A DNA stretch of 64,000 bases from a virus. Taxonomy: Duplodnaviria; Heunggongvirae; Uroviricota; Caudoviricetes. This document shows, one piece after another, positions 42,647 to 57,501 of this stretch (the stretch's first letter is position 1; each line of letters opens with the position of its first letter). The position numbers and the translations under genes were made by a program. The stretch is from the IMG/VR virus record IMGVR_UViG_2721755662_000004; one strand, 5' to 3'. The notes beneath the pieces were generated by a model, which did not search any database, was not told the origin of the DNA, and saw nothing but the letters and a program-made list of their open reading frames with translations.

Positions 42647-43384
42647 ATGAAAAGTATCACAAAATTTCTTGTGTGCGCAACTCTGGGCTTAGGTGGATTA
42701 ACTGCACAGGCACATGCTGCATCTGGTGATAGTACCGTATCCCTTGGATTCGCTCACCTTCAGCTATCCGGGCTGAATAATTTTGTTAAGGATTTAAGTC
42801 TTCATAACCTTGATACCTTTAACAATTTTGTGAATGAAAACTATTTCAATTCACCTGGAGAATATGACGATGCGTTTGTCCGGGGCCATGATGGTAAAGA
42901 GAAAAGTCCCTTGGGAATGAACATTAAGTATCGTTATGAGATTACGGATGAGATCGGTGTTATAACCTCTTTTGCATGGGCTCGATCCATGACTAATGCA
43001 CAGGCATTCATTGATGTTAAGCCTTCCGATCCATCACGAGAGGTAAAAAAACCGGCAGCTTCAGCGAGAACTGATATCAGGGCTAATTACTGGAGTCTAC
43101 TATCCGGTCCTTCGTGGCGGTTTAATGAATACCTCAGTGTGTATTCAATGGCAGGTGTTGCGGTTGCAAAAGTAACTTATGATTTGAAAGTTAACGACAA
43201 TCTTAATGGTGGTGTAGGTAGTTTTTCTGAAAGTAACAGCACCAAAAAAACGTCTATTGCATGGTCTGTCGGCGCGCAATTTAACTTCAATGAAAGTGTT
43301 ACTATGGACGTCACTTATGAAAGCTCAGGCTCTGGCGACTGGAAAACTGATGGTTTATTTGCAGGCATTGGCCTGAAATTCTGA
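42647..43384 (+). CDS. lom: Lom/Ail/OmpX-family outer membrane beta-barrel protein
   Basis: 245 aa; signal peptide, alternating amphipathic strands, C-terminal GLKF; AT-rich. Confidence 0.8.
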   Translation: MKSITKFLVCATLGLGGLTAQAHAASGDSTVSLGFAHLQLSGLNNFVKDLSLHNLDTFNNFVNENYFNSPGEYDDAFVRGHDGKEKSPLGMNIKYRYEITDEIGVITSFAWARSMTNAQAFIDVKPSDPSREVKKPAASARTDIRANYWSLLSGPSWRFNEYLSVYSMAGVAVAKVTYDLKVNDNLNGGVGSFSESNSTKKTSIAWSVGAQFNFNESVTMDVTYESSGSGDWKTDGLFAGIGLKF

Positions 43385-43408
43385 GTAATACCCGACAACA
43401 TGTCATAA

Positions 43409-43431
43409 CCCGCTGTGATGGCGGGTTTTTT
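43409..43431 (+). terminator. Intrinsic terminator after lom
   Basis: CCCGC-loop-GCGGG plus T6. Confidence 0.6.
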
Positions 43432-43616
43432 GTTGCCCGTGCAGGGCAAAAATCGTAGATTATGCGCGGGTGTCTTTCGGCTGATGGCTGGAAGGTGAAC
43501 CTGAAGGCCTGATGTGGAAAGGCCCCGAGTCAAACATTTTGTTTAACCCGAGGCCCTAACCATCATACCTTAAGCAAGTAGAAGGTTAGCGCCTCTCCAC
43601 TCAGGAGGCAAGCGCT

Positions 43617-43757
43617 ATGTCGCAAAAATCGCTCATCACCGTCACAATTTGTATGACGGTAATCTTCACCATCTGGATGTTACACGGCTCGTTGTGTGAG
43701 TTCCGGCTGAATTTGTGGGGAGCGGAGTTTGCGGCGTTCTTACAGTGTAAGCAGTAG
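43617..43757 (+). CDS. Hok-family type I toxin (HokA/HokE-like), second copy in this prophage
   Basis: 46 aa MSQKSLITVTICMTVIFTIWMLHGSLCEFRLNLWGAEFAAFLQCKQ; matches Hok pattern TM-SLCE.R...E.AAFL; AGGAGG SD; followed by strong hairpin. Confidence 0.6.
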   Translation: MSQKSLITVTICMTVIFTIWMLHGSLCEFRLNLWGAEFAAFLQCKQ

Positions 43758-43813
43758 GAAAACCGCGACGGGGACGAAAGTCCCCGTCAACTGGTTGCTG
43801 AGGTTCAGCCGAT

Positions 43814-44215
43814 ATGGCACCCGTTTCTGGTGAGAGAATGGACGACAAAATTCTCCGGTATATGCAGCGTGTTGTGAGAAATTCCCGCAACCCTGAATTT
43901 ATGAATGAAGTTAAAGACGCCTGCCTTAAAAAGCAGGCGTTTTGTTTTGAGGCACCTGATGGCTTTCTGGTGCTGCGTTCTGTGCTCAGTGCTGATGGTA
44001 TCCCTTATGTTTTGGTGTTGCTGGGCGTGTGTACGGGGAGTAACAGCGTTGAGCGTTATCTGCCGGAGGTGAAGACATTAACCCGTCTGGCTGGCGGACG
44101 CTGGGCTGAATTTCATACGGCAAGACGGGGATTTATCCGGCTGGGAAAACGTCTGGGCTTTGAGCGAATGCCGGATGATGAGGATGGCTTCATGGTGTTC
44201 AGGATAGCGGTCTGA
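43814..44215 (+). CDS. Hypothetical protein
   Basis: 133-aa ORF; alternative start MDDKILRY at 43838 has better SD. Confidence 0.5.
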   Translation: MAPVSGERMDDKILRYMQRVVRNSRNPEFMNEVKDACLKKQAFCFEAPDGFLVLRSVLSADGIPYVLVLLGVCTGSNSVERYLPEVKTLTRLAGGRWAEFHTARRGFIRLGKRLGFERMPDDEDGFMVFRIAV

Positions 44216-44306: not shown

Positions 44307-44963
44307 ATGGGCGGAAAAAAAGGCGGTGGTGATACCAAAGTAAAACCAACAGCAGCGCAAATAGCACAGGAAGAAGTGGCCTGGAAAGGGTGGCAGGATT
44401 ATCAAAAAATCCTCCGCCCGGCTGAAGATAACTTCATGGAAAAGGTCGATGACCTGAACAGTGAGCAGCAGTACGACAATATTGCTGGCACCACAAATCT
44501 GGGGTATCAGAAACAGTTTGGCGAAGCACGGAAGGAGCTGGCGGGTAATCTTGCTCAGTCCGGTGTTGACCCGTCCAGTGGTCGCTTTAACGCGGTAATG
44601 AATGCGAACCAGAGTGATCAGGTAACCGGGCAGATTGACACAACCACACGGGGGCAGGTATCGCAGGCAGATAAGTATGTTGCCGGGCTACAGGATGTTG
44701 CTGCTCTCGGTTCTGGTCAAAAGGCGGATGCGTTACAGAGTTTTAACTCGCTGGCAGACAGCAGTCTGGCAAAAGCTAAATCGGACGCACAGGCTGCGTT
44801 TACGAAACAGCAGGGGCGAGCCTCTCTTGTTGGCGCTGGTTTGGGTGCGGTAGGTGCATATGCGATGTATAAGGCTGGCGGTAGCGGAGGAAGTGGCGGT
44901 GCTAAAACACCTGGCATCGGCGCTAATGCCATTCAGCATCAGGCTCAGAACTGGAGACTGTGA
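44307..44963 (+). CDS. Virion-associated protein (hypothetical)
   Basis: 218 aa; Gly-rich ends; first gene of coupled cluster leading into giant gene. Confidence 0.55.
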   Translation: MGGKKGGGDTKVKPTAAQIAQEEVAWKGWQDYQKILRPAEDNFMEKVDDLNSEQQYDNIAGTTNLGYQKQFGEARKELAGNLAQSGVDPSSGRFNAVMNANQSDQVTGQIDTTTRGQVSQADKYVAGLQDVAALGSGQKADALQSFNSLADSSLAKAKSDAQAAFTKQQGRASLVGAGLGAVGAYAMYKAGGSGGSGGAKTPGIGANAIQHQAQNWRL

Positions 44964-57015: not shown

Positions 57016-57501
57016 TCACTCTCCTTTGATGCGAATGCCTGTTGCAATGCTGTTTATGATGCTGTCAGTGCATGGGGTAGAAAGCTGGGCATCTCCAGCA
57101 ATTTTCATGACCTCAACATCTGCATATCGAATACCGAGGTGTATCAGACCGGCTATGCCTGACTTAAGCCGAGCATTTTCCATAAATAGAACTTTTGCCC
57201 GCTGTTTTTCTGCTTCAAGCTCAACGCGCAGCTTCCCTACCGTTAGCGCAATATCCTCGTTCTCCTGATCGCGGCTTTTGATGTATTGCAGGTTTCTTTC
57301 CCGTTCATCCAGCAGTGCCAGCACGGTTTCTGGTCCGGTCAGAAATTTGAAGGCGTTGAGCGCATCAATATCCACACCGTAATCTTTAAGTTCCTGTTCA
57401 CTTAACAAGTCATCATCAGCTGGCAACATTAACAGGCGTTCCATTGCTGGAATTGCACGTTCCGCCACCTCACGCAGTGCCTGGTAATTAATTTCGCTCA
57501 C
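57016..57501 (-). CDS. Ea22-like early protein
   Basis: 161 aa; N-terminus MSEINYQALREVAERA shared with adjacent paralog. Confidence 0.55.
   Translation of the reverse strand: MSEINYQALREVAERAIPAMERLLMLPADDDLLSEQELKDYGVDIDALNAFKFLTGPETVLALLDERERNLQYIKSRDQENEDIALTVGKLRVELEAEKQRAKVLFMENARLKSGIAGLIHLGIRYADVEVMKIAGDAQLSTPCTDSIINSIATGIRIKGE

Follow-up and report, generated by a model that had tools for sequence, protein, structure and literature searches.

A lom-adjacent hok gene in an stx-negative 933W/Sp5-like prophage and its predicted hok/sok-type setting without a mok reading frame

The gene at 43617–43757 (+) in the 64,000-nt stretch analysed here (the window; virus record IMGVR_UViG_2721755662_000004) almost certainly encodes a Hok toxin and belongs to a locus of the hok/sok type. 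With a probability of roughly 0.8, it supplies the toxin of a complete type I toxin–antitoxin module of this type. As a whole, this module is best explained, with good confidence, as a self-contained "moron" between lom and the downstream virion genes of an stx-negative 933W/Sp5-like prophage. The gene itself is already known, having been annotated, catalogued, and reported as toxic.

The coding sequence, which carries a 46-aa ORF with an ATG start (MSQKSLITVTICMTVIFTIWMLHGSLCEFRLNLWGAEFAAFLQCKQ; ORF listing of the window), is as follows.

43617..43757 (+), hok coding sequence, a Hok/Gef family membrane toxin (Pfam, PHROG, RefSeq, and dN/dS).

This peptide is present exactly as quoted in the first-pass annotation, which had recognised a Hok signature in it. 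It matched Pfam HOK_GEF (PF01848) over residues 8–44 with 33.2 bits (E 4e-8; gathering score, 22 bits) and PHROG 251 with 85.8 bits (E 2.8e-24), so that its alignment to the Hok family is far beyond chance. All seven residues found in >80% of peptides in the logo of a 2026 Hok survey (M1, C16, T18, L30, C31, E32, and E41; bioRxiv 10.1101/2025.08.07.668861) have counterparts in the lom-adjacent Hok (M1, C12, T14, L26, C27, E28, and E37). The mean Kyte–Doolittle hydropathy of 17-residue windows was 1.4–1.9 for those starting within the first 13 residues and 0.3–0.8 for later ones, and the peptide has the single N-terminal hydrophobic helix and polar C-terminal part expected of a Hok protein of ~50 aa. 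The gene was said to have been missed by ORF calling; it was absent from the earlier ORF list only because of a 60-aa cut-off, whereas RefSeq/PGAP (WP_000078907.1, "Hok/Gef family protein") and several phage records annotate it.

The gene adjoins lom, as had been noted; lom (Ail_Lom, 105.5 bits) ends at 43384 and is followed by a terminator.

43407..43427 (+), lom intrinsic terminator (9-bp stem + TTTTTGTT) followed by a T-run, the upstream boundary of the hok module (terminator scan).

An Rfam "Trp_leader" match at 43354–43434 (E 0.21) corresponded only to this lom terminator, and the Rfam matches to BSnc120 and GlmZ were at chance level. The hok gene is situated within the late block of virion genes and shares their strand. 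The feature had been delimited at 43560–43790, which is too small, because the whole locus extends from the promoter at 43433 to the end of the fbi element at 43822. Of 5426 complete E. coli genomes, 1550 carry the lom-side locus, which is also present in ~198 phage records, among them those of Sp5/VT2-Sakai and 933W. An intact ORF of 46–47 aa occurs in two unrelated phage groups (Sepvirinae and the P2-like Xuanwuvirus), E. albertii, and Salmonella, and P88-type phages carry the same module after tail gene D, away from lom. A contig search for the locus returned six loci, three of which, with the implausible titles Xanthomonas, Planococcaceae, and Vagococcus, are probably contamination.

The sequence around the ORF contains the following candidate elements of a hok mRNA.

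43433..43461 (+), predicted hok promoter: -35 TTGCCC (43433–43438), 17-nt spacer, and -10 TAGATT (43456–43461) (sequence and homologues).
43468..43483 (+), tac at the 5' end of the hok mRNA (GGGTGTCTTTCGGCTG), whose predicted partner is fbi in the full-length RNA but ucb once the 3' end is truncated (MFE folds).
43514..43526 (+), ucb-like box (GTGGAAAGGCCCC), with the GAGGCC box (full-length fold) and tac (truncated fold) as its predicted pairing partners (folds and pair counts).
43550..43556 (+), GAGGCCC box, homologue of the mok Shine–Dalgarno (SD) region of hokC (hokC comparison, three-frame translation, and alignments).
43588..43616 (+), SD/anti-SD hairpin, in which the anti-SD CCUCU(C) at 43592–43598 pairs with the SD AGGAGG at 43603–43608, with an outer AGCGC/GCGCU helix (folds).
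43766..43789 (+), stable 3' stem-loop after the hok stop codon (CGACGGGGAC-GAAA-GUCCCCGUCA) (terminator scan and homologue pair counts).
43806..43822 (+), fbi element (CAGCCGATATGGCACCC), which pairs with the 5' tac (folds and homologue pair counts).

The hok promoter hexamers were kept in homologues as TTGnnn and TAGATT, TAAATT, or TAGAAT with a spacer of 17–18 nt, and the spacer sequence diverged. The hok and sok promoters of this locus were both below the threshold of a consensus promoter scanner. The hokD-like locus and hokC share a GCGGGTG 5' end, homology with which places the presumed transcription start of hok at ~43468. The leader (149 nt) and the trailer (65 nt) were at least as well conserved as the coding sequence; in phi315, for example, the UTRs were 89–97% identical and the coding sequence 67%. 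The strong SD reported directly upstream of the gene was found at 43603–43608 (AGGAGG), 8 nt before the ATG, and a strong SD at the correct spacing was present in all of the above groups with an intact ORF. The two helices of the SD/anti-SD hairpin were 98% and 88% paired across 10 homologues, with one-sided changes only.

The hairpin described downstream of the ORF was also well supported. It has 10 pairs, 7 of which are G-C, closed by a GAAA loop, and 98.9% of alignment cells were paired in homologues; two of its pairs changed on both sides and still paired (G-C to A-U in four sequences and A-U to C-G in three). Since no U-run follows it, this hairpin is not a plus-strand terminator; the scanner called it only on the minus strand, which has no gene to use it. 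By analogy with R1 hok (PMC9841398), we propose that it is the stem-loop protecting the 3' end of a processed, translatable hok mRNA. The terminator scan detected no intrinsic terminator between fbi and the next gene.

A search for an antisense RNA, which had been suggested as a check, yielded a predicted Sok-like gene with a conserved promoter and hairpin on the minus strand.

43508..43576 (-), predicted Sok-like antisense RNA of ~65–70 nt, both ends of which are estimates (minus-strand fold and homologue consensus hairpin).
43583..43611 (-), predicted sok promoter: -35 TTGCCT (43611–43606), 17-nt spacer, and -10 TAACCT (43588–43583) (hokD-like locus and sokW primers).

The predicted Sok would have a 5' tail complementary to the hok leader at 43556–43576 and a long hairpin spanning 43557–43519. 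Its minus-strand fold had an energy of -39 kcal/mol, with a z score of -6.9 for the hairpin. The consensus hairpin was kept in all 10 homologues examined, and its conserved G-U pairs are A-C mismatches on the plus strand. The sok -35 hexamer and the hok SD overlap; every aligned homologue has AGGTTAG unchanged, and the hexamers, like their spacing, are identical to those of the hokD-like locus of the window. When the Rfam sok model (RF01794) was compared with the hok-sense leader at 43468–43628, it scored 35.1 bits (E 1.8e-5), which is below the gathering score of 59.

No mok ORF starting with ATG, GTG, or TTG in any of the three frames reached the hok start in the window and in 13 of 15 homologues. 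The TTG ORFs of the other two (P27 and Stx2_481) have no SD and were treated as chance. The lom-adjacent locus lacks the segment (the start codon and ~15 nt around it) in which the hokD-like locus and hokC have their mok ATG. By comparison with the K-12 hokC locus (preprint Table S1), the GAGGCCC box is followed by ATC in place of the hokC ATG, with a TAA downstream at 43571; close relatives differ in the leader by 1-nt indels that break the frame. The ATC at 43562 was rejected as a non-canonical mok start, with TAA three codons on and a site that is not conserved. A 15-codon ATG ORF (43512–43559) was likewise rejected as a leader peptide; in VT2-Sakai it is shortened to 8 codons, and its position is within the conserved hairpin. 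Since there is no mok leader frame, translational coupling cannot be the control route. We found no description of a mok-less hok locus or of a mok-independent control mode in the literature searched. The earlier statement that the gene has no mok-type leader is thus correct as to the reading frame, but a full hok-type 5' leader (tac, ucb, the mok SD box, and the predicted sok) is present. Because of this leader and the predicted sok, the setting appears to be a hok/sok variant rather than that of a plain SD-driven late gene.

We then considered how such a locus might work, and infer the following scheme, including the transcript ends, Sok expression, the SD switch, and the biological role, from the folds and homologies. 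An mRNA of ~355 nt would be transcribed from ~43468 by the locus's own sigma-70-type promoter (43433–43461). In the full-length RNA, tac would pair with fbi (43806–43822) and the SD would be held in the anti-SD hairpin, leaving the RNA translationally silent. Trimming of the 3' end back to the stem-loop at 43766–43789 would remove fbi, whereupon tac could pair with ucb, and the freed GAGGC box (43550–43554) could pair with the anti-SD GCCUC (43591–43595). With the anti-SD occupied, the SD hairpin would be weaker, and the strong SD of hok itself could support its translation directly. What was once the mok SD box would thus act as an anti-anti-SD. Sok, ~65 nt and transcribed from the promoter at 43611–43583, would pair with the leader at 43508–43576, including the GAGGC box, and would block the switch, keeping the SD sequestered, and/or mark the duplex for RNase III. 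Hok, as a small inner-membrane toxin, may kill or arrest cells that stop making Sok, serving prophage maintenance or phage exclusion. Alternatively, it may contribute to lysis once the prophage is induced, a role demonstrated for Sp5 hokW-sokW (PMC8621323). The locus is probably functional and under Sok control; the specific SD-switch mechanism is a tentative proposal, to which we give somewhat less than an even chance.

The two states of this scheme were compared with RNA folds. The MFE fold of the full-length hok RNA (-155.3 kcal/mol, z -6.7) was closed by the 5'–3' (tac/fbi) pairing, and this closure was predicted independently in 8/8 homologues. Across the tac/fbi alignment, 94.8% of cells were paired, compared with 35–46% when the partners were slid by 1–3 columns. 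Its two helices were 97% and 86% paired, and the changes in them kept pairing through wobbles and, in one case, through a double change; the S. diarizonae homologue has a second helix altered on both sides that still pairs. The MFE fold of the truncated RNA contained the tac/ucb and GAGGC/GCCUC pairings, which were 94–100% pairable in homologues. Nearly all of these pairs are invariant, and therefore they provide no covariation evidence, so that this pairing is permitted but not proved. The gain in SD accessibility on truncation was small (mean unpaired probability, 0.18 to 0.22). When the Sok target region was blocked in silico, the full SD hairpin was restored.

The ORF of the window and that of VT2-Sakai differ at seven synonymous and no non-synonymous positions. 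Overall dN/dS was 0–0.4, and it was 0.2–0.4 at dS 0.5–1.4; the Hok ORF is under purifying selection. Disrupted alleles also occur in some phage lineages: EH2011 has an 8-nt deletion, and 3/3 sampled phages of the LC616xxx/LC645442 set have a +1 G frameshift. The lom-adjacent hok is therefore dispensable.

In R1 hok, mutations in the mok start codon abolish toxicity (PMC9841398), and the loss of mok could therefore mean that the locus is silenced. On such an account, hok would be an untranslatable relic whose ORF was kept by recent common ancestry and hitch-hiking with lom. The dependence of R1 hok on mok translation, the inactivation of several K-12 chromosomal hok loci (e.g., hokA cut by IS150, with mokA marked as a pseudogene), and the frameshifted and truncated hok alleles of some Stx2a phages are in line with it. 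However, purifying selection acts across substantial synonymous divergence (dN/dS 0.2–0.4 at dS up to ~1.4), and the 46–47-aa ORF is intact in Sepvirinae, the P2-like Xuanwuvirus, E. albertii, and Salmonella, with a strong, well-spaced SD in all of those and a conserved UTR structure. Moreover, the peptide is reported to be toxic (bioRxiv 10.1101/2025.08.07.668861). We consider a silenced relic unlikely.

Less likely again is that hok is a plain late-operon moron, translated from its SD on Q-antiterminated read-through from lom, with no promoter, switch, or antisense RNA of its own, which is roughly how the first-pass annotation pictured it. The strong SD, the absence of mok, the position in a same-strand late virion block, and the lack of a terminator between fbi and the next gene would all suit this arrangement. 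It leaves unexplained the conservation of the 149-nt leader and 65-nt trailer at or above the level of the coding sequence, the tac/fbi pairing in 8/8 homologues, the promoter-like hexamers conserved on both strands, and the occurrence of the same module after tail gene D in P88-type phages. Read-through may nevertheless express hok in addition to its own promoter. Finally, a length of only 46 aa and the low complexity of Hok peptides could suggest a chance open frame with a spurious Hok resemblance, but this is already refuted by the Pfam score above the gathering threshold, the PHROG match (E 2.8e-24), the presence of every conserved Hok residue, an identical peptide named Hok/Gef on at least 1000 contigs, and purifying selection on the ORF.

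With a hok/sok-type module as the preferred reading, the clade to which this peptide belongs (cluster 72 of the Hok survey) can be viewed as a natural experiment, in which a hok/sok locus persists under selection without mok. [quoted passage not shown] If confirmed, mok-less persistence would sharpen the textbook account of how hok is regulated and aid automated type I toxin–antitoxin annotation, in which finding mok is a recognised problem.

The lom-adjacent gene had been called the second Hok gene of the prophage, and the window does contain another, hokD-like gene at 13672–13827, which RefSeq names "hokD".

13503..13918 (+), other hok locus (hokD/hokW type), with leader, mok, hok, sok promoter, fbi, and terminator (Rfam, ORF list, RefSeq, and alignment).

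This locus has an in-frame mok from the ATG at 13615 and scored 110.3 bits with the Rfam sok model (gathering score, 59). When the two loci were aligned, the tac, AGGTTAG, GGCAAG, 3' hairpin, and GCACCC blocks were in common. The Sok-target segment differs between the two leaders, and therefore cross-regulation of the two loci appears unlikely.

A close published parallel in setting is hokW-sokW of Sakai prophage 5 (Takada et al. 2021, PMC8621323), likewise a prophage-borne hok/sok locus in a phage of the same type. In the sokW promoter region, as given by the PMC8621323 probe and mutagenesis primers, the hexamers are identical to those of the lom-adjacent sok promoter. HokW, however, is of the HokD type, has 51 aa, and comes with an in-frame mok, and its counterpart in the window is 13503–13918, not the lom-adjacent locus, with which PMC8621323 did not deal. 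Sp5/VT2-Sakai carries both loci, hokW being orf74 ("gef homolog", 57501–57713) and the lom-adjacent locus lying at ~44514–44914, where it is unannotated in the Sp5/VT2-Sakai record. Stx phages such as Sp5 thus bear two distinct hok loci, and the published ΔhokW-sokW mutant of Sp5 therefore kept the lom-adjacent one. The remaining hok may have masked part of the lysis-timing or phage-release phenotype.

Among Hok peptides, the one studied here had been described as HokA/HokE-like. HokA is indeed its nearest K-12 paralogue (45% identity over 40 aa), and common to the two are the W that ends the TM helix, the SLCE motif, and, close to the C-terminus, AAFL.C. However, it scored only 38.4 bits with the HokA equivalog model NF007290 (NCBIfam; cut-off, 89), and HokA belongs to 60%-identity cluster 93 of the survey. 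HokE belongs to cluster 46; a tblastn search with HokE against the window alone aligned the two over 34 aa at 35% identity (E 1e-3). By these sequence comparisons, the lom-adjacent peptide is neither HokA nor HokE but falls in its own 60%-identity cluster, 72. Survey entry 72_1589 is this exact peptide, cloned as plasmid LRP157 (Escalera-Maurer et al., bioRxiv 10.1101/2025.08.07.668861). Another entry of the cluster, 72_1621, is a P88-type variant one residue off P884B11, and both were taken from a "high-abundance cluster" and cloned for toxicity assays (bioRxiv 10.1101/2025.08.07.668861). On overexpression, 72_1589 was reported to be toxic, as were 42 of 45 peptides, with only 19_179, 60_1482, and 69_1540 named as non-toxic (bioRxiv 10.1101/2025.08.07.668861). 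That survey covered coding sequences only and explicitly left mok, Sok, and mRNA structure aside (bioRxiv 10.1101/2025.08.07.668861).

The lom-adjacent locus resembles hok/sok/mok of R1 in its Hok-family membrane peptide and in its long structured mRNA with a tac/fbi fold-back, ucb box, GAGG box, and 3' protective stem-loop. In both, the antisense Sok promoter lies between the (former) mok and hok starts, with its -35 hexamer overlapping the hok SD region. It differs from R1 in having no mok frame, a consensus hok SD (AGGAGG or AAGGAG), a shorter peptide of 46 aa, no terminator after fbi, and an Rfam sok score of only 35 bits. In control mode it may be closer to aapA/IsoA of Helicobacter pylori, in which the toxin SD is sequestered and freed by 3' processing, with an antisense RNA and no leader peptide (PMC9841398), a mode that the same paper contrasts with that of hok. 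The aapA toxin belongs to an unrelated family in another organism, and the likeness to the lom-adjacent locus would be one of function.

The lom-adjacent hok gene and its immediate surroundings comprise the following features.

Features of the lom-adjacent hok gene.
42647-43384: upstream gene encoding an Ail/Lom protein (Pfam, 105.5 bits)
43603-43608: Shine-Dalgarno (SD) sequence AGGAGG, 8 nt upstream of the hok ATG
43617-43757, + strand: hok ORF, ATG start, 46 aa
43766-43789: G+C-rich stem-loop of 10 pairs, downstream of hok

The first-pass annotation had described a 46-aa Hok-type ORF beside lom, a strong SD directly upstream and a stable hairpin downstream, and the coordinates, the quoted peptide sequence and both flanking elements agreed with our ORF listing and analysis. 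The peptide scored 33.2 bits against Pfam HOK_GEF (gathering score 22, E 4e-8), matched PHROG 251 'MokW-like host killing' (E 2.8e-24), carried 7 of the 7 residues that a survey of Hok diversity (bioRxiv 10.1101/2025.08.07.668861) finds in >80% of Hok peptides, and was strongly hydrophobic in its N-terminal half. The ORF is a Hok-family gene, and the resemblance is no accident.

A 451-bp region with this gene showed 100% identity to E. coli FORC_069 (the window corresponds to its coordinates 2472160-2536159) and to several further genomes, in which the ORF carries the PGAP annotation WP_000078907.1, 'Hok/Gef family protein', and is flanked by Ail/Lom and a hypothetical protein. The prophage is of a stx-negative, 933W/Sp5-like type (Sepvirinae) and sits between the integrase gene and ynfF. 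The locus was matched in 1550 of 5426 complete E. coli genomes and in 198 phage records, including VT2-Sakai (Sp5), EDL933-Stx (933W), 24B, P27 and many Stx2a phages; annotated phage records call the product 'Hok/Gef family protein', 'small toxic polypeptide', 'host toxic membrane protein' or 'MokW-like host killing'. In the protein collection, the exact peptide occurred on at least 1000 contigs. Contigs titled Xanthomonas pisi, Planococcaceae MAG and Vagococcus sp. also carry this enterobacterial phage hok (76-100% protein identity) and are probably contaminated or mis-binned. The exact peptide is entry 72_1589 of the high-abundance cluster 72 in the survey, whose authors built pAZ3Ω72_1589 (strain LRP157) to assay its toxicity under arabinose induction; 42 of 45 homologues tested were toxic, and 72_1589 is not among the three named as non-toxic (10.1101/2025.08.07.668861). 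Since the gene is already annotated by PGAP and in several phage records and is catalogued, the claim that it was missed by ORF calling reflects only the 60-aa cut-off of the first reading. The lom-adjacent hok is thus a known, annotated gene with reported toxicity in a recognisable hok/sok-type locus, and is an ordinary finding.

The gene had been called HokA/HokE-like. Among the K-12 paralogues, HokA was indeed the closest (tblastn, 45% identity over 40 aa); however, the peptide reached 38.4 bits with the NCBIfam HokA equivalog, whose cut-off is 89, and HokA, HokE and this peptide fall into separate 60%-identity clusters (93, 46 and 72, respectively; 10.1101/2025.08.07.668861), which rules out identity as HokA or HokE. 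Identity with hokW was also ruled out. The hokW-sokW locus of Sp5, which has been studied by experiment, codes for a HokD-type peptide of 51 aa (PMC8621323), and the hokW start-codon primer of that study matched the window at 13672 and VT2-Sakai within orf74 'gef homolog' (57501-57713). Therefore, hokW corresponds to the hokD-like locus at 13503-13918, the second hok of the window, and the claim that the prophage has two Hok genes held. With the Rfam sok model, the hokD-like locus scored 110 bits; it has an in-frame mok (leader ORF) from 13615 and is annotated as hokD in RefSeq. It follows that Sp5 has both loci, the lom-adjacent one lying at ~44514-44914 of AP000363. In this original VT2-Sakai/Sp5 GenBank record, the lom-adjacent hok (L003 1688-1828) is unannotated and hokW is annotated as 'gef homolog' orf74, and studies built on the record could miss the second hok locus. 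The published ΔhokW-sokW Sp5 strain still had the lom-adjacent locus. Two Hok homologues occur in only 3.5% of Hok-encoding phages (10.1101/2025.08.07.668861).

Several elements indicate that the lom-adjacent ORF belongs to a complete RNA module of the hok type. A hit of the 157-position Rfam sok model, here on the hok-encoding strand, spans 43468-43628 (E 1.8e-5, with a score under the gathering score). Alignment of the two hok loci of the window revealed a common 5' end, GCGGGTGC, a common AGGTTAGC and GGCAAG, the complements of the sok -10 and -35 elements, respectively, as well as a common ATG, 3' hairpin and terminal GCACCC. Shortly after the lom terminator (43407-43427), positions 43433-43461 hold a promoter-like TTGCCC-17-TAGATT, whose hexamers and spacing are kept in homologues despite differing spacers (P88, TTGCCG-17-TAGATT; E. 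albertii, TTGAAA-18-TAGAAT). The RNA 43468-43830 was predicted to fold with -155.3 kcal/mol (z -6.7), its first 16 nt pairing with 43806-43822 as the fold-back between tac (the mRNA 5' end) and fbi (its 3' partner). This closure was predicted in all eight homologues folded separately, including the S. diarizonae homologue, whose second helix is changed on both sides. In a 10-sequence alignment, 94.8% of cells were paired under the full-length model, compared with 35-46% when partners were slid by 1-3 columns, and the 3' stem-loop had compensatory double changes at two pairs.

On the minus strand, a predicted promoter for the antisense RNA Sok, TTGCCT (43611-43606), 17 nt, TAACCT (43588-43583), matches the hokD-like locus exactly in hexamers and spacing and agrees with the sokW promoter region as found in the PMC8621323 probe and mutagenesis primers; AGGTTAG was invariant across all homologues. 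The predicted RNA from near 43576 would form a long hairpin (-39 kcal/mol, z -6.9), which was kept in 10 of 10 homologues and which has G-U pairs that would be A-C mismatches on the opposite strand. We infer the ends and expression of both the hok mRNA and Sok.

The claim of no obvious mok-type leader was half right: a hok-type leader is present, but it holds no mok reading frame. In the window, no ATG, GTG or TTG ORF reached the hok SD or start in any frame, and the frame equivalent to mok is interrupted by a TAA at 43571. In the K-12 hokC locus, the mokC ATG comes 6 nt after AACCCGAGGCC (Table S1, 10.1101/2025.08.07.668861), whereas in the lom-adjacent locus the same AACCCGAGGCC (43546-43556) has ATC at this spacing, with TAA three codons beyond. 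Compared with the hokD-like locus, a ~15-nt segment containing the mok ATG is missing. From the GAGG box to the hok SD, close relatives differ by several independent 1-nt indels, which is incompatible with a translated frame there; a TTG-initiated ORF, lacking an SD, occurred only in P27 and Stx2_481. Because mutations of the mok start codon in R1 abolish Hok toxicity (PMC9841398), this mok-less clade either translates hok differently or is silent.

Silence is at odds with the coding sequence, which is under purifying selection. The window and VT2-Sakai differed by 7 synonymous and 0 non-synonymous changes, and dN/dS was 0.2-0.4 (dS 0.5-1.4) against the P88-type, phi315 and Salmonella alleles. 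Intact alleles of 46-47 aa, all with a consensus SD at proper spacing, were found beside lom in Sepvirinae, after tail gene D in P2-like Xuanwuvirus, in E. albertii and in Salmonella. phi315 (PV189403) shared 89% and 97% identity with the window in the 5' and 3' UTRs, respectively, and only 67% in the CDS (54% in protein), its ORF remaining open and Hok-like; these values indicate cassette-like divergence of the toxin ORF within a conserved RNA scaffold. Purifying selection, the intact alleles and the open phi315 ORF together argue for a functional, expressed toxin rather than a silent relic. Disrupted alleles exist in some lineages, so hok is dispensable for the phage: a +1 G in a G-run shifts the frame and alters the C-terminus (44 aa) in all three Stx2a phages sampled from a 95%-identity group (LC616045, LC616034 and LC645442), and an 8-nt deletion cuts the EH2011 allele (LC645443) to 24 aa. 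In the Xuanwuvirus phages P88 and P884B11, the mok-less module follows tail gene D with no lom nearby and therefore moves independently of lom. We found no description of a mok-less yet apparently selected Hok cluster in the searchable literature, and the 2026 survey explicitly left mok out of its scope (10.1101/2025.08.07.668861). That the phage-borne cluster 72 lacks mok yet appears to be under selection is the sole point of interest.

The nin region (13503-15419) holds a toxin-antitoxin gene cluster.

Toxin-antitoxin genes of the nin region.
13503-13918: hokD/hokW-type hok-mok-sok locus
14235-14720: Doc-family toxin gene
14771-15419: RelE/ParE toxin gene with HTH partner

A unit of isrK, c4-a1b1 and C4 antisense RNA, like P1/P7-type immunity, occurs twice (15542-15740 and 17127-17325), flanking ORF6N/ninB/ninE, with the second copy directly upstream of the ant antirepressor gene. 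A strong STnc100 sRNA match (165 bits, 20467-20672) closely follows the Q antiterminator gene, at the site that stx genes occupy in Stx phages; this prophage lacks stx and has a SASA/NanS-type esterase gene after the match. Close to the right end of the prophage, two sRNA-Xcc1 family matches (59696-59785 and 60579-60664, minus strand; 68 and 73 bits) occur amid ant/BRO-type genes.

By analogy, the lom-adjacent hok could serve prophage maintenance, keep out other phages, as R1 hok/sok reportedly does with T4 (cited in PMC8621323), or help in lysis after induction, as hokW-sokW does (PMC8621323). A terminator scan found no intrinsic terminator downstream of fbi, in contrast to the hokD-like locus, and primary transcripts may therefore enter the next gene. 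The annotated ATG of that ORF (43814-44215) falls within fbi; its true start is likely ATG 43838, which has GGTGAGAGA upstream: residue 9 is the first one covered by the PHROG 610 match, and in the P27 record the gene starts at the equivalent ATG.

The most likely mechanism would be an anti-anti-SD switch at the hok SD under Sok control. In the predicted full-length fold, an outer AGCGC/GCGCU helix encloses the pairing of the SD (43604-08) with an anti-SD (43594-98), and 43521-26 is the partner of GAGGCC (43550-55). When the RNA was cut downstream of the stem-loop, tac was predicted to pair with 43514-26 and GAGGC (43550-54) with GCCUC (43591-95), leaving the SD in a weak 3+2-bp arrangement; blocking the Sok target (43508-43576) in silico restored the full SD hairpin. 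These refolds make it possible that the former mok SD box serves as an anti-anti-SD, and Sok might sequester this box and/or direct RNase III cleavage. The computed change in SD accessibility from full-length to cut RNA was small (0.18 to 0.22), and the switch helices lack covariation support because they are almost invariant. The proposed mechanism would resemble that of aapA3, in which gating acts on the SD of the toxin itself (PMC9841398).
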